From Octopus vulgaris (taxonomy: Eukaryota): 64,000 bases of DNA. Position numbers and translations under genes: made by a program. The stretch lies in assembly GCA_951406725.2 (NCBI GenBank), contig OX597815.1, forward strand, positions 100,936,001-101,000,000. Reading direction: 5' to 3'. Positions 5,133 through 39,905 of this stretch are shown here, piece after piece. The notes beneath the pieces are model-generated. The model saw only the letters and a list, made by a program, of their open reading frames with translations. It ran no database searches and was not told the DNA's origin. Numbering within the stretch: position 1 is the stretch's first letter; every line of letters begins with the position of its first letter.

Positions 5133-6580
<1,448 letters not shown>

Positions 6581-7166
6581 TGGCGCTGAACTAACAACAA
6601 GTGTGTTAACGTCTTTCTCCTAAACATTAAGGAAGTCCTTCCAGAGATCGATGTTATCAGAAGCGAAATTGTCTGCAAAGCGAATATAAGTGAAAGTACA
6701 ACAAGTCACTGTATTTGAGAAGAATATTTTCGCTTTTGATATAGTGTTTTGCAACTAAAACATACTCGTGAATACACGTGTTAAAACGCACGTGTGTTAC
6801 TTTCCCGAAATCGAAGTGAATTTTATTCTTCGTCTGTGAATCAACAAGACACAGGATATTTTCGTTTTGATGTATATCTGCGTGTTCTGAAAAAAGCCTC
6901 TGAAAAATTTGCTGCTTAATACCAAATCGCTTAGGGAAATACAGAAAGTATTCCTCAAACTGTTGCACGTGCTAAATCGAAACTCAAATCCCTTTTGTTT
7001 ACAAAGTGCGCTTGGGGAAAAAAAGGTCTGTCTTGTCTATCTATCTTCCTTTCTCATAAAAAGGAATCGCGTAAGTACTCTCTCTCAGCCGGTAAGGTAA
7101 GGAAAAAAAAAAATATTACTTATTTTGTTATCATTAGTGTTCTTTCAAACAGAAAATAATAATATA

Positions 7167-7420
7167 TCTATGTGTATGTATATGTGTGTGTTAGAAGTAT
7201 AGCCGCAATTATTTTTAGAAGACATTGTTTTAGCGACGGACAAATGTATATCTTCTTTTCTCTTTTTCTCTGCTTAAATTCTGTAAAATCTCTATGTGTA
7301 TGTATATGTGTGTGTTAAAAGTATAGTCACAATTAGTTTTTATTTTAGAATACATTGTCTGTAGCGACAAATACATATTTTCTTTTCTCTTTTTCTCTGC
7401 TTAATTTCTGTAAAATCTCT
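7167..7420 (+). repeat. Tandem duplication of about 125 bp in the putative LINE 5' UTR
   Basis: TCTATGTGTATGTATATGTGTGTGTTA..AGTATAG...CTGTAAAATCTCT occurs twice. Confidence 0.85.
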
Positions 7421-7770
7421 TGGATTGTTTTCTTTCAGCTATTTCATTATTATTATTATTGTTTCTTTATATACTCACTTGGTACTACTGTTTATATATG
7501 TGCGTGTGCACACATGTATATATGTGTGTATGTGTATGTATGTATACGCGTGTGTGTGTGTGTACAAATAGCTTCGCTTAGAATTCTCCCCTCTCTCTCT
7601 CTCTCTGTCTGTCTCTTCAGTTTCTCTCACTCACGCTTCTCCTTGTCTCTTCATAGCTCTCATTCTATCTTACTCCCCTCTTTCAAATATATAAATTCTC
7701 TCTATATTTCTTCCTTCTCTCCCTATCTCTTCAGTTTCTCTCCCGCTTCTCCTTGTCTCTCCATTTCTCT

Positions 7771-8060
7771 CTTCTAACTTACTCTCCTCTCTCGGATACA
7801 TATAAGGACATAGACGCTTTCTCTCTCTTCCTTCAGCTCTCGGTCTCTCCTCTTCCTCTTCTCTCTTACTCTCGGCTCCCAATTTCTCCTTAAGTACATA
7901 GACGCTCCCTTTCTCTTCTAACTTACTCTCCTCTCTCGGATACATATAAGGACATAGACGCTTTCTCTCTCTTCCTTCAGCTCTCAGTCTCTCCTCTTCC
8001 TCTTCTCTCTTACTCTCGGCTCCCAATTTCTTCTTAAGTACATAGACGCTCCCTTTCTCT
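7771..8060 (+). repeat. Near-perfect 144-bp tandem duplication in the putative LINE 5' UTR
   Basis: CTTCTAACTTACTCTCCTCTCTCGGATACATATAAGGAC starts at 7771 and again at 7915. Confidence 0.9.
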
Positions 8061-8214
8061 ACTTTCTCCCTACCCCCCTATTGCACTATTAGATTAATAT
8101 AAATTAATATAATATAATATAATTCCTCCCTTCCTCACAATCACAATCTCTTCCTCTCTCCTCCCTTCTCCCTTTTTCCCTCACAGCTTCTCTCTCTCTC
8201 CCCGCTACAACGGA

Positions 8215-9150
8215 ATGGACAACATGCAAAAATTAGAGGTGAATGCAAACACTGGCGTCAACAAAAGCCAGCGTAACTGGACGAAAGTAGAGCTGGAAGT
8301 TTTCATCAGAGGATGGAGCTCGGCCGACAGATCGCAACCAACTAAAAACATAGCGGCGACCCTGAAAAGCCATGGCTTTATGAGGACGTTGGCGCAAGTA
8401 GAGAGGAAGAAAAGAGAAGTCGAAAGGGCCTACACTCTCATTGCACCACACATGGCTTTGCTAAGCCAAGTCCTCAAGGTGGACAAAGACAAAGAGAGAG
8501 AGATGGAAACAGGAAACACCAACCACAGAGTGTCAAAAAATGACACGCCCACTGCCACAGTCGAAGAAGGCAAGCAGGGCAAACAACAGATAGGCGGCAA
8601 TGGGGAAACAGAAAATAACCACCCGGATGAAAAGACCTATGCAGAAAGGAACCAGTGGACAACCGTCCAACGGAGGAAGAAAAAACAGAGAGGAACTGGG
8701 GACAAGAAAACCCAGATAACATGCAAATTCTTCCGGAATGGAACCTGCTGGCATGGAGAAACAGGGGAAGGATGCAGGTTCGCTCATCCCAGGCCCTATG
8801 GAAATTGCATCAAACCCACTCGACCAAAATGCCTTAACCAAAACCAGAACAAATACAAGCTGCCCCAGAAATATGCAGACATAGTGCGTAATGCCCCAAC
8901 AAGGAGAAGGTGCACATTTGCAGAGGAAATGCAGACGGCGGCAGCAGAACAAAGAAATTTTGTGGAAATGGCAGAGAAAATTGTGGGACAACTGGCCTGG
9001 ATACATCGTCTTCAGAGCCAGGGGCACTCACAACAGCACTCAAGACCACCACAATCAAGGGACCCAGGGTGGCCACCGCTGACGCCGGCCCAGGTGCCAC
9101 ACCGTCAGCCTTTATTGACACCCCGGGTGTCTCACCAGTGCTTCTGCTGA
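8215..9150 (+). CDS. LINE ORF1, 311 aa: Myb/SANT-trihelix-like N-terminus, basic linker, CCCH zinc finger
   Basis: ATG start; RNWTKVELEVFIRGW...IAATLKSHGFMRTLAQVERKKREVERAY; CKFFRNGTCWHGETGEGCRFAHP; homologous segments at 25278 and 33138. Confidence 0.85.
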   Translation: MDNMQKLEVNANTGVNKSQRNWTKVELEVFIRGWSSADRSQPTKNIAATLKSHGFMRTLAQVERKKREVERAYTLIAPHMALLSQVLKVDKDKEREMETGNTNHRVSKNDTPTATVEEGKQGKQQIGGNGETENNHPDEKTYAERNQWTTVQRRKKKQRGTGDKKTQITCKFFRNGTCWHGETGEGCRFAHPRPYGNCIKPTRPKCLNQNQNKYKLPQKYADIVRNAPTRRRCTFAEEMQTAAAEQRNFVEMAEKIVGQLAWIHRLQSQGHSQQHSRPPQSRDPGWPPLTPAQVPHRQPLLTPRVSHQCFC

Positions 9151-12092
9151 ATGTCAGAGGTCTGGTGAAACCCACTAATATGGGTAAAATTCCTTACCTT
9201 AGGGACTTGAGCACAAGCAACCATGCAATATGCATAGCGCTGACTGAAACGCACCTGTCAAGCAGTATAGCAGATGCAGAAATACACATACCGAAGTATA
9301 CTGTTTTTCGGTCGGACAGGAAGGAAAGAACTCATGGTGGGGTTGCCCTGTACGTCCGTGAAGATGTCACACCCATAGTACTGTTGACACACTCAAACTC
9401 AGTCTGTGACACACTGATAGTACACATGAAACAACCGAAAATAGTAATATGTGTCACATATCGGCCACCAGACACCCCTAGTCATGAAGGAGTGTTTGAA
9501 GATAGCCTCAGAAGAATAGAAGAAGTCCTGGACAAACTGGACCAGGGTAACACCATTCTACTGCTGGGAGATTTTAACCTTCCGAAAGTCAAATGGCCAG
9601 ATGGCCATCTCCTCCCTGGAATGACATCACTTGAACAGAGACAGACAGAGTCCTTGTTGGCTCTCACACGCAAGTTTTTCATGGAGCAAGCAGTGCTTTG
9701 GCCAACAAGAGGTGAGAATGTCTTGGACCTCTGTTTCACAAGCAACCCGATGCTCATCCACAACATAATGGTAACACCAACAATTCTCTCAGATCACAAC
9801 TTAGTAGAGGTAATGATATATGGTATGAGAGAGTTAGTTGAGACGCAGCCATTAGAAAATACCACAGGCCTATCCAGTCTAAACTTCCATAAGGCAAACT
9901 GGAAGAAGATCAACGAAGAGATCCGAAAACATGACTGGAGTGACTTCATCACCACACAAGACACCAACACACATTTCCAACATTTCATGACAACAATACA
10001 GAACATATGCCATAAGTTTGTCCCGGAGAAAAAAGCCAGCGGGCATAGGAACGTTATTCCCAGAGACAGGAAAATACTTATGAGGCGAAGAGCTAAGCTC
10101 TCGAAGCAACTGAATGCACGGCAGAGAAACAATGAGGGACTCCACCTGAAACTTTTTGAAACGGAAACTGCACTCAAACTTTCCTATGAGAAGGAGAGGG
10201 CAGAGAGAGAAGCCAGGGCCATAGAGAATATTAAAACAAACCCTAAAGCCTTCTTTAAATTTGCGAAAGAAACCACCTCGGTACACTGCAAGATTGGCCC
10301 ACTCTTTGATAAAAAGGGCTCTCTAACTGAGGACCCCCAAGGGATAAGTGAAATACTAAAGGAACAGTATAAAAGTGTGTTCACATCCCCTCTGGGGCAC
10401 ATGCAAATCACAAACCCAGAAGTTTTCTTTGATGCCACAACACTCCAAAACCAAACAACAACCATCGACCACATAGACATAACAGAGAGGGATGTAATAT
10501 CTGCCATAGAAGAAATGAGAATAAACTCAGCTGCTGGACCAGATGGATTCCCAGCAGTCCTCCTAAAAACATGCAGGCATGCCCTAGCGGGACCACTGAA
10601 GAAGCTCTTCAGTGGTTCCTTGGCTAACGGTAAACTGCCCAGGGCGCTAAAAGAAGGCACCATATGCCCTATCCACAAAGGAGGGAGTAGAGCAGAGGCC
10701 AAAAACTACAGGCCAGTCTCCCTGACGTCACACATAAGTAAGGTCATGGAACGAATCATCAGAAAAAAACTGATCACGTTCCTCGAAGAAACTAACCGTC
10801 TCACTGACACACAGCATGGCTTTCGCCCAGGAAGAAGCTGCCTTACGCAGCTGTTACAACACTACGACTGGGTACTGAAACAACTACTGGATCGCTCACA
10901 GGTGGATGTGGTATATCTCGACTTTGCGAAGGCCTTTGACAAAGTCGACCACGGAGTGATATGTCACAAATTACTCAGACTCGGCATAACAGGAAAAGTA
11001 GGTGAGTGGATACATGACTTCCTGAAGGACAGAAGCCAGATGGTTGCAGCCAATGGAGCCCTCTCGGGAAAGACACCAATAGCAAGCGGGGTGCCACAGG
11101 GCACAGTCTTGGGACCCTTGCTGTTTTTGGTGGCGCTCTCTGACATGCCCTTGGTAGCACAAACAACATCCCTCACTAGCTATGCTGATGACACAAAGGT
11201 AGCACAGGCAATCAAAAACCCAGCTGATGCTGACCTTTTACAACAAGATCTGGATGCCATATACAAATGGGCTGAAGACAACAACATGCAATTTAATGCT
11301 GGCAAATTTCAAGCCTTACAATATCAAGCTGTAAACACATATACATTACAACACAACTATACTGGTCCAGGAGGGATCGAAATCCCAGTATCGAAATCAA
11401 TACGGGACCTGGGGATAGACATGAGTGACGATGCATCTTTTTCTTCACACATCGCGAAGGTGGCGACAATGTGCAGACGACTCACTGGCTGGATCCTGAG
11501 GACATTCCGGACAAGAGACTGCGAGACCATGTTGACACTATGGAGGACATTTGTCCTAAGCCGCCTGGACTACTGCTCCCAACTGTGGTCACCGCATAGT
11601 GTCAAACTAACCACAGAGCTTGAGACAATCCAAAGACATTTCACCAAGAGGATTTCCACCATGAAAGAAAAGAACTATTGGGAGAGGCTTAGGGAACTCA
11701 ATTTGTACTCCTTGGAACGAAGACGAGAGAGATATGCAGTGATATACATATGGAAAATCCTGGAGGGACTAGCACCAAATTTTGGAATTGAGAGCTGTTC
11801 CAATCCCCGTACAGGACGTCACTGTGTGGTGCCAAAGGTCCCGTCTTCCACATCCAGGGTAAGGAGCAGATACTGTAATAGCCTGGGGTTCAGGGGCCCT
11901 CAGCTTTTCAACAAACTGCCAAGAAAACTAAGAGATCTACATGATGCGGATGTGGACATTTTCAAAAAACATCTAGACAAGCTGCTTTCCGGGATCCCAG
12001 ATGAACCCACTGCAAGGTACGAAGGTAACCTAAGGGCAGCAGCTACAAACTCTCTCTTAGATCAGTGGCCAGCCACGGCAAACTGGACTTAG
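8910..12092 (+). CDS. LINE ORF2, uninterrupted APE endonuclease + reverse transcriptase (true start uncertain)
   Basis: [39 protein letters not shown]; [48 protein letters not shown]; CR1-type [10 protein letters not shown]...SLERRRER C-terminus. Confidence 0.96.
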
Positions 12093-12164
12093 AGAGGGTA
12101 GCAACAAGGGCGGTGCCCCAGCATGGCCTCAGCCGGATGGCTGAAACAAGTAAAAGTAAAAGAG

Positions 12165-20230
<8,066 letters not shown>

Positions 20231-22452
20231 TAAGCCAACTGGAAGTCGATTGAGAAAGAGATCCTCAAACAGGATTGGCCTGAATGTCTCTCCATACCGG
20301 ACATAAACATGAAACACAAACACTTCATGTCCATAATACAAGCCATATGTGACAAATATGTCCCAATGTGCAGGGCCAGCACACACAAGAATAAAAACAG
20401 GATCCCTAGAGAAAGGAGGATTCTTATGAGACGACGGACAAGGATTGCAAACCGCCTGAGCAAGCACGCCAAAAGTGGTGAGAAGTCTCGGCTCGAAAGA
20501 ATGCTAATGGAAACTGAGAAAAGTCTACATCAGTCCCATGAAAAGGAGAGAGCAGATAAAGAAGCTTGGGTAATAGAAAATATAAAATCAAACCCTAAAG
20601 CTTTCTTTAAGTTTGCCAACAGCCACAGTGCACCAGAAATAGACCTCTCTTCCAAAAAGATGGCTCTCTCACAGGAAATCCCACGAGGATAAGTGAAATA
20701 CTGAACGAACAGTAGTGTTCACTACACCTCTAGGACACAGGCAAGTAAACAACCCAGAAGAATTCTTTGCCACTTTACCAGACACAAACTCGAAGAAGAT
20801 GATATCTGCCATGATGACACTGATGGATTCCCAGCGATCCTTCTCAAATCGTGCAAACGAGCCCTTGCAAAACCGCTACAGCTTCTTTTTCAGAGCTTTC
20901 TTGCAAGTGGTAAGCTCCCAGTCAAACTGAAAGAGGGGGTAATATGCCCTATCCATAAGGGAGGTAGCAGAGCAGATGCTAAAAATTATAGGCCTATCTC
21001 TCTGACCTCACACATCAGCAAAGTCATGGAACGAATAGTCCGTAAGAAACTAATCATGTTCCTTGAAGAAAATGACTTACTGTCTGACACCCAGCATGGA
21101 TTTCGACCAGGTAGAGGCTGCCTAACACAGCTCCTGCAACACTATGACTGGGTGTTGAAACAGCTACTAAATGGCTCAAATGTGGATGTAATATATCTTG
21201 ACTTTGCAAAAGCCTTTGATAAAGTCGACCATGGTATGATCTGTCACAAACTGCGTGGTCTCGGCATAGGCGGGAAACTTGGAGAGTGGCTGCACAACTT
21301 CCTAAAAGACAGAAAACAGGCAGTTGTGAGCAATGGAGCCACCTCCAGGGAAACGCAAATAACAAGCGGTGTCCCACAGGGCACTGTCTTGGGGCCACTG
21401 ATGTTCATAGTGGCCCTTTCAGACATGCCTTCAGTTGCTACGATGACCACCCTTGCTAGCTATGCAGATGACACAAAAGTCTCCCACGCAATACAAAACC
21501 CTGAAAATATTGCGTATCTGCAACATGAGCTGGACACAATATACAGGTGGGCTGAGGACAACAACATGCAGTTTAATGCAGGTAAGTTCCAGGCCCTGCG
21601 CTACTGGCACACAAAGGTAAATGACGTGAAGACTGGATACACTGGCCCAGGAAGAATTGCAATCCCTGAGTCAAAATCAGTGCGTGACCTGGGCATTGAC
21701 ATGAGCAATGATGCATCTTTCCAAATGCATATTGCTAATCTGGTGATAAAATGCAGACGGCTAGCTGGATGGATTCTCCGAACTTTCAGAACAAGAGAGA
21801 AGGAGACACTGATGGTCCTATGGAAAACATTTGTCCTCAGCCGCTTGGACTACTGCTCCCAACTTTGGTCACCACACAATATAAAACAAACAGCAGAACT
21901 CGAAGCAACTCAGAGAAGCTACACAAAGAAAATCGTCTCAATGCAAAATGTCAGCTACTGGGAAAGACTGAAGGTATTAAACCTCTTCTCCCTGGAGCGG
22001 AGGCGGGAGAGATATGCAGTGATATACATCTGGAAAATCCTGGAGGGTCTTGTCCCAAACTTTGGCATTCAAAGTTACTCCAACCGCAGAACGGGGCGCC
22101 GCTGCGTGGTGCCAAGGATTCCAACATCACCATCAAAATACAGGTCCAGATACTGCAACAGCTTGGGTTTCAGAGGACCACAGCTCTTTAACATCCTCCC
22201 TAAATGCCTGAGAGACTTACATGGTGTGGATGTGGGTTTCTTTAAAACTAAACTGGATCTCTTCTTGTTGGGAGTCCCAGATGAACCTACCTCACGACAG
22301 GAGACACGGATGCGGGCAGCAGCATCGAACTCCCTTGTTGATCAAGTGCCACGTATCAGAGGTGGATTCACAAACTAGTGTGGCTCATTCAGCGGTGGTG
22401 CCCCAGCATGGCCGCGGCCTTCGGGCTAAAACATTTTTAAGGATTTAAGGAT
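20231..22452 (+). mobile_element. 5'-truncated CR1-group LINE, related subfamily
   Basis: Open RT and C-terminus (21026-22378) clearly homologous to ORF2; upstream part frameshifted; conserved 3' motif GGTGCCCCAGCATGGCC at about 22397. Confidence 0.93.
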
Positions 22453-23241
<789 letters not shown>

Positions 23242-23937: not shown

Positions 23938-25250
<1,313 letters not shown>

Positions 25251-25277
25251 GATAAACGGATAGACGGATTATCCAGC

Positions 25278-25834
25278 ATGTCCAGAGCATGGAGACGTGA
25301 CGAGCTGGATTTATTCGTACGAGCATGGGAGTGCGCCGGCGGAGATAGCCCTAGGGAGGTGATTGCGGCTGCGCTGAAGAGCAGAGGCTACAAGAGGACA
25401 GCGGCTCAGATGGAGCGAAAGAGACAGGAATTCGTGCGCTCATATGCGCTTGTACGGTCGCACATTGGCGCACTTGATGCCATCTTTGAGAACGAGCGGA
25501 GCAAAGATGGCAAGAATGGAGACGATGAAAGAAGTCACTCCCACCTGGTGGACGCCCGGGAGGAGGTTTTGAATGAGAAACCTGCCCGGGGAAGTGAACC
25601 CAGGTGCAAGTTCTCCAACCGGCAGCAAGGGCCATGGAGACGGAGAACCCGGTGAAGAGGTAGAGGGAGGAAGTAGAACTAAAAGAAGGACTGGAAGAGC
25701 TAAAGGAAAAGAAAAAGCTCAAGCAGGACCAAAGAGTGAAACAACCAGAAATAGAAGTGGATCCGCAAAGGATGGAACCAAACAGCGCACACGGGTGTGT
25801 ATGTTCTACCTGAGTGGTTCCTGCTGGCATGGAA
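25278..25834 (+). pseudogene. Divergent homolog of LINE ORF1 (one frameshift; cut by the assembly gap)
   Basis: RAWRRDELDLFVRAW...IAAALKSRGYKRTAAQMERKRQEFVRSY aligns with the 8215 ORF; VCMFYLSGSCWHG in another frame matches TCKFFRNGTCWHG. Confidence 0.8.
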
Positions 25835-25934
25835 NNNNNNNNNNNNNNNNNNNNNNNNNNNNNNNNNNNNNNNNNNNNNNNNNNNNNNNNNNNNNNNNNN
25901 NNNNNNNNNNNNNNNNNNNNNNNNNNNNNNNNNN
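25835..25934. other. Assembly gap (100 N)
   Basis: Run of N. Confidence 0.99.
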
Positions 25935-26775
25935 ACGTGAGAAGACCAGGCAGGACAAGTGAGCCCAGCCCACTTATGAATGCCTTTCCTCCCTTGGACA
26001 CAAAGACCGGTTGAGGCAAGCGAAGTCGATATAGAACCTCATCCGACGACAGACACCCATGCCAACCCCCCATGCTTGCGAAGACATGTTGGGGCAATCG
26101 AAATCGAAACCGAATTGAACCAGCCAGGATCCCTGGCCTGGTGGTACGTAAAAAGCACTATCCGACTCGTGGCCGTGGCACGTAAAATACTCCAATGCGA
26201 CCGTACGACAGGCACCCATGCCAACCCCCTTTGCTTGTGAAGACATGTTGGGGCAAGCGAAATCGAAATCGAATTGAACCAGCCAGGATCCCTGGTCTGA
26301 TGGTACGTAAAAAGCACTATCCGACTCGTGGCCGTGGCACGTAAAATACTCCAATGCGACCGTACGACAGGCACCCTTGCCAACCCCTTTGCTTGTGAAG
26401 ACATGTTGGGGCAAGCGAAATCCGAATTGAACCAGCCAGGATCCCTGGTCTGGTGGTACGTAAAAAGCACTATCCGACTCGTGGCCGATGCCAGCACCGC
26501 CTCGACTGGCTTCCGTGCCGGTGGCACATAAAATACACCAATCTGACCGTGGCCGTTGCCAGCCCCGCCTGGCACCTGTGCAGGTGGCACGTAAAAAGCA
26601 CCCACTACACTCACGGAGTGGTTGGCGTTAGGAAGGGCATCCAGCTGTAGAAACATTGCCAAATTTAGACTGGAGCCTGGTGCAGCCTTCTGGCTTCCCA
26701 GAACCCCGGTCGAACCGTCCAACCCATGCTAGCATGGAGAACGGACGTTAAACGACGATGATGATGATGATGATG
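25935..26775 (+). mobile_element. RTE LINE 3' UTR with internal ~158-bp tandem repeat and (GAT)n tail
   Basis: GCTTGYGAAGACATGTTGGGGC at about 26074, 26233 and 26391; ends GGACGTTAAACGACGATGATGATG. Confidence 0.8.
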
Positions 26776-32743: not shown

Positions 32744-33135
32744 AGGTGCAGGAGTGGCTGTGTAGTAAGTAGCTTGCTTACCAACCACATGGTCCCGGGT
32801 TCACTCCCACTGCGTGGCACCTTGGGCAAGTGTCTTCTACTATAGCCTCGGGCCGACCAAAGCCTTGTGAGTGGATTTGGTAGATGGAAACTGAAAGAAG
32901 CCCGTCGTATATGTGTACATATATATATATATATGCGTGTGTGTGTTTGTCCCCCTAGCATTGCTTGACAACCGATGCTGGTGTGTTTACGTCCCCATAA
33001 CTTAGCTGTTCGGCAAAAGAGACCGATAGAATAAGTACTGGGCTTACAAAAGAATAAGTCCCGGGGTCGAGTTGCTCGATTAAAGGCAGTGCTCCAGCAT
33101 GGCCGCAGTCAAATGACTGAAACAAGTAAAAGAGA
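32744..33135 (+). mobile_element. Full-length tRNA-derived CORE-like SINE
   Basis: A box TGGCTGTGTAG, B box GGTTCACTCCC, CORE-like CCTTGGGCAAGTG, central TA/TG tract, LINE-like tail GTGCTCCAGCATGGCCGCAGTCAAATGACTGAAACAAGTAAAAGAG. Confidence 0.88.
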
Positions 33136-36232: not shown

Positions 36233-37548
<1,316 letters not shown>

Positions 37549-39905
37549 TGATTGATTGATTCTAGTTTCAGCCTACGAGCTGTGGCCATGCTGGGGCACC
37601 GCCATTTGTTGTTGCTACATGGTTTTACTTCACGAATGCTTTTTAGCAACTGCCATTTGGTGCATGAGAGAGTTCGATGCAACTGCCCTCATCTGCACCT
37701 CCTGCTGTGAAGTTGCTTCATCTGGGATACCTGACAAGAAGAGATCCAGTTTCATTTTAAAGACATCTGCATCCACCCCATGCAGGTCTCTTAGGTTCTT
37801 CGGGAGGATATTGAAGAGCTGTGTGCCTCAGAAGCCCAGGCTATCACAGTATCTTGTCCTACATCTTGGAGTCCTTGGCACCACGCAGTGGCGCCCAGTT
37901 CTGGCATTTTCTGTAATTCTCGATGCCAAAGTTTGGGACAAGTCCTTCCAGGATCTTCCAGATGTATATTATGGCATATCTTTCTTGCCTACGCTCCAAG
38001 GAATAGAGTTTTAATCTCTTGAGTCTTTCCCAGTAGCTTATATTCTGCACACAGAGGCTATCTTCTTTGTGTAGCTACGTTGGATCGCCTCAAGTTCTGT
38101 GATTAACTTGACACTGGATGGTGACCATAGCTGAGAGCAATAGTCAAAGTGGCTTAGGACAAGCGTCCTCCAGAGGACAATCATGGTTTCTTGTTCTCTT
38201 GTTCTAAAGGTTCTAAGAATCCATCCGGCCAGTCGTCTACATTTTATTGCCAATTTAGCAACATGTACACGAAAGGTTGCGTCATCACTCATGTAAATAC
38301 CCAGGTCACGCACTGATTGTGCCTCTGGGATTGCAATTCCTCCGGGTCCAGTGTATTCATTGGGTATTGCATTTAGTTTTGCATGCTGATACCATAAAGC
38401 TTGAAACTTTTCAGCATTGAACTGCATGCTATTCTTTTCAGCCCACTTGTATATCTCATCCAGCTCACATTGCAGGTACATAGTGTCTTCAGGGTTCTGC
38501 ATTACCTGTGAAACTTTTGTATCATCTGCATAACTTGTGATCGTGGCTCTCTGCGTGGCTGAGGGCATGTCTGAGAGGGCCATTATGAACAGTAGTGGTC
38601 CCAAAACAGTGCCCTGCGGAACACCACTCACTATTTGCGTGTTAATGGAAGTGGCGCCATTGGCTACTACCACCTGACTTCTATCTTTCAGAAAGTCATG
38701 AAGCCATTCTCCCAGTTTCCCAACTATGCTAAGATCACGCAGTTTGTGACATATCATTCCATGATCGACTTTATCAAAGGCCTTTGCAAAGTCGAGATAT
38801 ATGACTTCCACATTTGAGTGGTTGAGCAGTCGTTTCAGCACCCAGTCATAGTGTTGTAGGAGCTGAGTTAAGCAGCTTCTTCCTGGTCGGAAACCATGTT
38901 GGGTGTCGGGCAGCAAGTCATTTTCTTCAAGGAAGGTGATCAGTTTCATCTGACTATTCGTTCCATGACCTTGCTGATGTGTGAGGTCAGAGAGATAGGT
39001 CTGTAGTTCTTGGCCACCGCTCTGCTACCTCCTTTATGAATAGGGCATATTTTACCTTCCTTCAGTTTTCTTGGAAGTTTGCCAGCTGCAAGGAAGCTCT
39101 GAAAGAGGACCTGCAGTGGTCTTGCTAGGACTCTCTTACATACTTTTAGGAGGATTGCCGGGTATCCATCGGGGCCAGTAGCTGAGTCTGTTTTCATTTC
39201 ATCTATAGCCTTTATTACATTGTCTTCCTTTATATCGATGTAATCTATTGTCACTGCCTCTGATTTTATATCTGCAGAGGTAAAGAAGTCAGTTGGATTG
39301 GTGATTTGGAAATGCCCAAGGGGTGGAGTGAAAACACTCTTGAATTGCTCATTCAGTATTTCACTTACCCTCATTGGTTTTCCTGTGAGTGTGCCATCCT
39401 TTTCAAGGAGTGGCCCTATCCTACAGTGCACCGTAGCTGTTTCTTTGGCATACCTGTAGAAAGCTCTGGGGTTAGATTTTATGTTGTCTATAGCCCAGGC
39501 TTCTTTGTCTGCTCTTTCCTTTTCATGGGAGAGTTGCAGACATTTTTCAATTTCCAACAGTTTTATTTTCAAGCGGGACTTTTCACTGCTTTCAATTTGT
39601 TTGTTTAGGCGATTTGAAATTTTTGTACGCCGTCTCATTAAAATTTTCCTCTCTCTGGGGATTTTGTCCTTGTGTACAGTGGCCTTTCTCTCTGGGACAC
39701 GTTTGTAGCATATGGCTTGCATTACAGACATGAATTGTTGAAGTTTCACGTCGATGTCTGGCGAGGAGAGACATTCAGGCCAGTTTTGTTTGAGGATCTC
39801 TTTCTCAATTTGTTTCCAGTTTGCCTTATGGAAGTTCAAGCTGGAAAGATTCTGAGGGTTTCTTGTAGGCTGCATGTCCATGCTTTCCTTTGGCCCGTAC
39901 ATGGT
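37549..39905 (-). mobile_element. 5'-truncated CR1-group LINE, same subfamily as 33136-36232
   Basis: ORFs 38946-40019, 38038-38949 and 37859-38050; 3' motif GGCGGTGCCCCAGCATGGCCACAGCTCGTAGGCTGAAAC followed by an (AATC)n tail. Confidence 0.93.

Follow-up and report, generated by a model that had tools for sequence, protein, structure and literature searches.

CR1 elements carry an ORF2 without RNase H or a C-terminal CCHC motif and end in a short tandem-repeat tail, and Kibi and Koshi, from the R1 and Tx1 clades, are APE LINEs that target microsatellites. The ORF1 proteins of the CR1/L2 lineage have been sorted into types I–V, which use RRM, CCHC, PHD, Tnp22 and esterase domains (Metcalfe and Casane, 2014, PMC4120745); the words Myb and CCCH have no occurrence in the main text of that survey. 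LINEs of this lineage have two ORFs, an APE endonuclease with a reverse transcriptase (RT), and a modular, exchangeable ORF1, as does the octopus LINE described here, but no strong target preference is described for them in the available text (PMC4120745), in contrast to the TA bias of the octopus families A–D. R2 and R4/Dong elements have a Myb/SANT-like domain in N-terminal position, for which the authors propose a targeting role, and Dong targets (TAA)n microsatellites (Schoen et al., 2021, PMC7998251). These elements are single polyproteins with a restriction-like endonuclease (PMC7998251), hallmarks absent from the octopus LINE, which has an APE domain and two overlapping frames with the Myb domain in a separate ORF1.

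TRE5-A of Dictyostelium is an APE LINE whose ORF1 protein is tied to target choice and whose ORF2 needs a −1 frameshift (PMC5911963). Unlike the octopus LINE it belongs to the L1 clade, its ORF1 protein has TFIIIB proteins near tRNA genes as binding partners, and the available text reports no Myb domain for it (PMC5911963). Coccomyxa L1s have an HTH_1 domain in ORF1 (PMC5203782), likewise a helix-turn-helix in a LINE ORF1, but one of the L1 clade, algal, of another domain family and without CCCH; Myb, SANT and CCCH are absent from the available text of that paper. Microsatellite-targeting APE LINEs such as Waldo occur in the R1 and Tx1 clades (PMC3812793, PMC13295347). These share a preference for simple repeats with the octopus families but belong to other clades and use other repeats. 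Among APE LINEs, only those of R1 and Tx1 are said to be site-specific, and the endonuclease is credited with this (PMC13295347, PMC4640811).

Recent CR1 activity in Octopus vulgaris is already known: Bonar et al. (2026, PMC13282606) list 13 CR1 families that were active recently, and 787 near-full insertions. The terms ORF1, Myb and microsatellite are absent from the supplement of that study, and its available text holds no ORF1 or target analysis. Families A–C described here are probably among these 13 young families. Neither a Myb plus CCCH ORF1 nor a TA-targeting CR1 was found in the literature searched, and within that literature the architecture looks undescribed, though Repbase, Dfam, the Zenodo octopus repeat library and most subscription papers could contain it.

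The window, the whole stretch of 64,000 nucleotides of O. vulgaris DNA that was analysed, contained a full-length LINE of family A together with the following features:

6300–6577, no strand: (TA)n array at the 5' junction of the LINE, continuing farther upstream.
6578–12164, + strand: full-length LINE of family A; 5' start common to 7 of 20 family-A copies, 3' end from the tail in 30 of 30 loci.
6578–8214, + strand: 5' UTR of 1.6 kb with internal repeats; first ~580 bp common to family B.
8215–9150, + strand: ORF1, 311 aa.
8272–8478, + strand: Myb/SANT-like (trihelix-type) domain, aa 20–88, called from a sub-threshold Pfam match, a predicted fold and hhalign.
8722–8787, + strand: CCCH finger C-x7-C-x8-C-x3-H, read from the sequence; Pfam CCCH matches sub-threshold.
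8892–12092, + strand: ORF2 frame, with the APE endonuclease from 9141, the RT at about 10671–11321 and YADD at 11181.
8911–9033, + strand: C-terminal ORF1 helix, conserved, in the overlap with the ORF2 frame (predicted helix 233–273, low to moderate confidence).
8955–8961, + strand: candidate frameshift site, the in-phase −1 slippery heptamer A_AAT_TTT.
9069–9071, + strand: GTG in the ORF2 frame, a candidate alternative ORF2 start; families B and C have ATG there.
12151–12164, + strand: 3' tail of the (TAAAAGAG)n type.
12165–20226, no strand: (TA)n-derived array of about 8 kb at the 3' junction (sequence to 13500; GC 0.03–0.13 to 20000; its end is the next element).
20227–22460, + strand: 5'-truncated family-B copy, 97–99.5% identical to B, with TA arrays on both sides.
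24754–25834, + strand: 5' part of a family-C copy; its ORF1 starts at 25278, has a frameshift and is interrupted by an N gap.
32745–33134, + strand: SINE with a family-A type tail, matching the LINE end at 86% identity over its 3' 51 bp.
37542–39905, − strand: 5'-truncated family-C copy, 94% identical to C, with its 3' end running into TA.

Five copies of families A–C lay in 35 kb of the window, and the TA-derived array of 12165–20226 filled the space between the family-A tail and the truncated family-B copy. The element at 6578–12164, which we take to be a CR1-type LINE by its C-terminal motifs, had an ORF2 frame that overlapped ORF1 and was open for 1066 codons from stop to stop. The initial annotation had reported 1060 uninterrupted codons; the first ATG (9180) lies inside the endonuclease, which starts at 9141, so that the coding length is about 983–1000 codons instead. 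Pfam matches and sequence identified RVT_1 (106 bits), Exo_endo_phos_2 (48 bits) and YADD, as in an APE-type LINE. No Pfam domain besides endonuclease and RT was found in ORF2, and RNase H and a C-terminal CCHC were absent. Truncation of the 5' end within 1.5 kb was seen in 11 of 30 family-A loci, and the common tail in all 30. An RT tree grouped families A–E against three outgroups at 77/93, weak support in a set without reference CR1 elements. RTE-2_OV was rejected as an identity for the LINE, as it has a single ORF and belongs to the RTE clade (PMC9115989). Near the beginning of the 5' UTR, at 7070–7100, there were splice-donor-like motifs, and a pyrimidine tract that ends in AG stood at 8140–8186, directly ahead of ORF1; family B has these as well. 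The sequencing-run contigs showed no spliced joint across the 5' UTR.

Family A is a young, intact and recently active LINE, in keeping with its first description as potentially active. Many near-identical copies were present in the 2.8-Gb octopus genome. A search with ORF1 residues 17–90 gave 1352 candidates, of which 150 were scored and 27 were identical over the whole query, and a 301-bp 3' piece had 40 scored matches, every one of them 100% identical. The main alignments of 20 family-A copies were 97.5–99.5% identical to the window copy; both frames were intact in 10 of the 20, a sample mostly picked for long ORF1 frames. Runs labelled as two further organisms contained contigs with a single difference across 378 bp. 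ORF1 was covered by contigs in three of four runs of presumed RNA origin, which is evidence neither for nor against expression. One contig of run X19 (L071:1531–1771) had 20 differences from the LINE 3' region, of which 16 were T>C (A>G antisense), a pattern that looks like ADAR editing.

At least four families in the genome had a Myb-bearing ORF1: A, B, C and D. Their ORF2s were 65% (B and C) and 38–40% (D, an older family) identical to that of family A. Families A–C have one CCCH finger after the Myb domain and family D has four in tandem, the spacing in A–C being that of D's second. The same layout as in A–C was seen in two proteins of 25–31% identity (P0023, P0024). The nearest named protein, 98% identical, was labelled Octopus vulgaris, and one relative was labelled O. 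sinensis. Protein searches gave three matches with the whole ORF1, five with the alignment, one with the CCCH region and, at E≤0.001, 31 with the Myb profile, none of them named outside Octopus; two of the 31 (P0027 and P0033) look like chance repeats. The ESM Atlas gave no usable match for A or D, which indicates neither absence nor novelty.

Profile searches and a predicted fold support ORF1 residues 20–88 as a Myb/trihelix-type domain. The motif comprised W22, E26, F30-I31, W34, I46-A47, L50, G54-F55, R57-T58, Q61, K65 and Y73. Pfam Myb_DNA-bind_4 (PF13837) scored 16.4 bits (E 0.012) on the window ORF1 and 20.1 on the domain alone, below the cut-off of 27. The model matched 13 of 13 aligned A, B and C domains at E≤1 (best 3e-4), all three family-D ORF1s above the cut-off (29.9–33.6 bits), and P0026 at 29.3 bits. 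With hhalign, the A–C alignment matched that of D at 97% and host-like Myb/SANT loci at 94%. The model of residues 14–92 had a pLDDT of 88.9 and helices at 10–21, 28–38 and 45–78, the third being long. The Myb/trihelix call of the initial annotation is thus supported in the window copy by the family-D scores and the predicted fold, despite the sub-threshold Pfam score.

Foldseek, proposed earlier as a check, returned MYB domains as its top rows but nothing at E≤0.001, and a sequence search of the PDB gave nothing significant. The top VIA-align matches were TEAD4 (Z 7.6, rmsd 5.1) and RAD MYB (Z 7.2, rmsd 2.4, 58 aligned), followed by LUX, ARR1, DNAJC2 SANT and GT-1 (Z 6.0), that is, MYB, GARP, SANT, TEA and GT-1 types; Z values of 6.0–7.6 are in the middling range. 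The core Trp of host-type helix 3 ('KW') was absent, its position aligning with Lys in A–C and Ile in D. Residues R57, R64 and K65 were invariant in A–C. In a genome search with PF13837, the best 30 of 43 matches included 23 homologous to the A–C domain (E≤7.5e-8) and five host-like ones, counts that leave out L229 and L234. The five host-like Myb/SANT loci (L211–L215) were above the PF13837 cut-off and had no LINE ORF nearby; they were rejected as donors of the domain, being far from it (E 9e-4 to 0.5).

The CCCH finger that follows (C170-x7-C178-x8-C187-x3-H191) was borne out by its ligands, which are conserved across families (B, C, P0002, P0023 and P0024), and all Pfam CCCH models stayed below cut-off on the window ORF1, its homologues and family D. 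The C-terminal helix was 52–93% identical in amino acids between families. A and B were 49% identical over the Myb domain, 63% over the CCCH finger, 54% over the C-terminal helix and 14% over the linker, while their synonymous sites were close to saturation; this pattern indicates that the ORF1 domains are under selection. No domain of ORF1 types I–IV (RRM, CCHC, PHD, Tnp22, esterase) was found by Pfam at E≤5, and no sheet-rich domain appeared in the low-confidence full-length ORF1 model (pLDDT 53.5). Formally, ORF1 is of type V, unclassified. The annotation of this ORF1 as unusual agrees with the ORF1 survey, in whose available text Myb and CCCH are not found (PMC4120745).

A captured DNA-binding domain had been proposed for the window family. 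A Myb-bearing ORF1 was present in four families, and the sequences indicate that the Myb plus CCCH architecture is old and its capture not specific to family A, because it is common to families whose ORF2s are only 38–40% identical. RT trees joined D with E at 61 and at 44/45, and a tree holding A–D together, apart from E, had a p-AU of 0.55; with these values, single capture and transfer of ORF1 both fit.

The ORF at 25278 had been described as a divergent copy of the window LINE that retains the motif. The two ORF1s were 38% identical over 81 aa (E 4e-16) and the motif residues were present, with F-V in place of F-I at 25278. A decayed copy of the window LINE was nevertheless rejected, since the 25278 copy matched family C, a young family in its own right, at 98.5% identity; 150 of 150 scored matches for that family had 89–100% amino acid identity. 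Its PF13837 score was 18.9 bits (cut-off 27). The conserved C-x7-C-x8-C-x3-H was confirmed in the window ORF1 but not at 25278, where a frameshift lies between the Myb and CCCH regions, the finger is interrupted by an N gap (25836–25935), and an RTE 3' end follows in place of ORF2. A complete family-C CCCH was present only in C copies other than this one.

Insertion sites were scored as arrays when at least 60% of the steps in the 30 bp after the tail were TA/AT. In 20 arbitrary 10-kb stretches, 4.2% of the 398,800 positions scored as array, which gives the background rate. For family A, 30 loci were picked by their 3' end and 29 were scored: 23 had a 3' flank in a (TA)n array and six lay outside arrays. 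Family B had 12 of 13 scored copies in arrays (of 20 loci, the rest without a readable tail), family C 12 of 14 (of 15) and family D 9 of 15 (of 20); the B, C and D loci were picked by ORF1 matches and not at random. Pooled, 56 of 71 scored copies of A–D were in arrays, against the 4.2% background. At the 5' junctions of family A, 21 of 29 scored as TA arrays, and five of the eight misses were not true junctions. Families A–D are thus target-biased (60–92% of scored copies), strongly though not absolutely. Pairing between tail and target was rejected as the cause of this bias, as four different tails share one target and the (ATT)n tail of a further family, E, does not.

Family E served as a Myb-less CR1 control. 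It is a young CR1 with an (ATT)n tail and poly-Q tracts in ORF1 (L247:64–700 (+), L366–L374), and only 2 of 30 copies were in arrays (Fisher p 7.5e-9 against A). Its ORF1 matched neither the Myb profile nor a Pfam PHD model, and was read as PHD-like from its cysteine pattern. As its RT was 35% identical and its endonuclease was also different, the effects of ORF1 and ORF2 are confounded in this single control. In a Tx1 control, 1 of 11 readable 5' junctions was TA-rich. In a Tx1/L1-like family (L306–L335), several copies were followed by one and the same sequence, perhaps a target that they share. An RTE family had 10 of 30 copies in TA arrays; young RTE sequence with a (GAT)n tail was present in the window at 25936–26770 and 1–2400 (−).

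The SINE that shares the family-A tail is an abundant tRNA-type element, found at 32745–33134 and in about nine other places; its partner LINE is likely to be the A lineage, judged from the 86% tail match only. Only 3 of 30 SINE copies were in arrays, yet 22 of 30 started with TA (background 10%). Bystander SINE copies were in arrays in 9 of 47 cases, above background. Family D, at ~92% similar in divergence to the SINE, had 9 of 15 copies in arrays against the SINE's 3 of 30 (p 7.5e-4), so that age alone does not explain the gap between SINE and LINE. The SINE's combination of 22 TA starts and 3 array sites suggests that ORF2 alone gives a preference for TA steps and that something travelling with the LINE RNA adds the preference for arrays. 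For this factor, an ORF1 with a basic Myb helix would be the obvious candidate.

We give a probability of about 0.42 to targeting assisted by ORF1, in which TA steps are where the endonuclease cuts, and the preference for arrays is added by the ORF1 protein, its Myb domain binding DNA. The endonuclease would nick at TA steps, the CCCH finger would bind the element RNA, the Myb domain would hold the particle on TA arrays, and a predicted −1 frameshift might fuse the Myb-bearing ORF1 to endonuclease and RT. Myb-guided targeting, as first proposed, accords with the strong (TA)n bias in four of four Myb families, with four different tail repeats on one target, and with the near absence of bias in the Myb-less CR1. 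Counting against ORF1 assistance is the presence of the RTE in TA arrays, which may attract many elements.

Nearly as likely is a reading in which the endonuclease and easily unwound TA arrays alone decide the target, and ORF1 only packages RNA, binds DNA unspecifically or a partner, or aids nuclear entry. Specificity set by the endonuclease is the rule in APE LINEs as far as described (PMC13295347, PMC4640811), and this reading draws as well on the RTE control with its 10 of 30 TA flanks, the TA-step preference conferred in trans on 22 of 30 SINE copies, and the loss of the helix-3 Trp. It accounts poorly for the same-tail SINE (3 of 30) beside family A (23 of 29) and the equally old D (9 of 15), and for family E, whose 2 of 30 indicates that TA arrays do not draw every CR1.

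The bias could also have arisen after insertion. If the arrays grew at the insertions, were added by the reverse transcriptase, or remain because other copies were purged, no real targeting took place. Insertion polymorphism, a check proposed earlier, did not yield an empty allele: no empty-site joint was found at L071 in four runs. Junctions lay inside TA runs, where a target duplication is unreadable, and arrays of several kb stand beside the window copy. The two flanks of one copy had array interruptions in common (mean Jaccard 0.26 against 0.10; 0 of 2000 permutations, 27 copies), which fits arrays that predate insertion; a short duplication, later expanded, could also leave such shared interruptions. 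The interruptions were locus-specific, however, copies 99.5–100% identical already had long arrays on both sides, and short truncated E copies of similar length had none. We consider an origin of the arrays without targeting improbable.

The 5' UTRs bear on a further alternative. Their first ~580 bp (6578–7160; L051, L053, L060, L068) were 91–94% identical between A and B, with 91.7% over 589 bp at the UTR start, at an ORF2 identity of 65%. Four A copies (L042, L045, L046, L050) had another upstream UTR and a near-identical ORF1. Together these findings point to an exchange of 5' UTRs between families. The Myb domain might serve self-regulation, binding the internal repeats of its own 5' UTR and controlling transcription, with the TA bias unrelated. 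Harbinger Myb-like proteins bind the ends of their own element, which gives this idea a precedent. The 5' UTRs were swapped between families, A and B having only the first ~580 bp in common, while the Myb domain was conserved, and we hold self-regulation to be a poor candidate for the role of the domain. Separately, four family-D 5' parts (L241–L243, L249) had the same several-kb non-D sequence downstream, which suggests a unit that is composite or was duplicated.

ORF2 lies in the −1 frame relative to ORF1, and within the overlap every family had an in-phase slippery heptamer. Family A carries A_AAT_TTT, families B and C share T_TTT_TTG, and family D has T_TTT_TTA; in the last three families the heptamer stood 1–4 codons past the opening of the ORF2 frame. 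The heptamer was kept in 16 of 20 A, 13 of 20 B and 15 of 15 C copies, and a T6-A run in 13 of 20 D copies; the background was 13 heptamers in 3941 ORF2 codons. By a rough count, the chance of one heptamer in each of three independent overlaps is about 1%. A downstream stem-loop was predicted only in A (z −2.9 to −3.2 in two longer windows), farther 3' than usual, and none in B, C or D, in folding without pseudoknots. Family A has no ATG before the endonuclease, and an in-frame ATG in B, C and D could start ORF2, so that a separate ORF2 start is the alternative. From these sequence features, we put the predicted −1 ribosomal frameshift at slightly better than even odds. If true, a single chain would carry the Myb domain, the CCCH finger, the endonuclease and the RT. 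An ORF2 made only as a fusion would give the SINE the Myb domain too, and the weak array bias of the SINE counts against ORF1-assisted targeting by such a fusion.

It is doubtful, though conceivable, that a CR1-type lineage independently rebuilt the R2/Dong design, with a captured Myb/trihelix domain in ORF1, a conserved −1 frameshift fusion to APE and RT, and insertion aimed at (TA)n. LINE target choice and the roles of ORF1 beyond RNA packaging are open questions, and this one genome holds four Myb-bearing, TA-biased families, a CR1 control that lacks Myb, a SINE with a shared tail, and intact copies, which make the role of ORF1 testable by mutation or swap. A swappable DNA-binding domain on a LINE is of interest for retrotransposon-based gene insertion. 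The finding also bears on the origin of octopus microsatellites and LINE clusters. If the R2/Dong-like reading were true, these elements would form a target-specific lineage outside R1 and Tx1, with targeting by an ORF1 DNA-binding domain.
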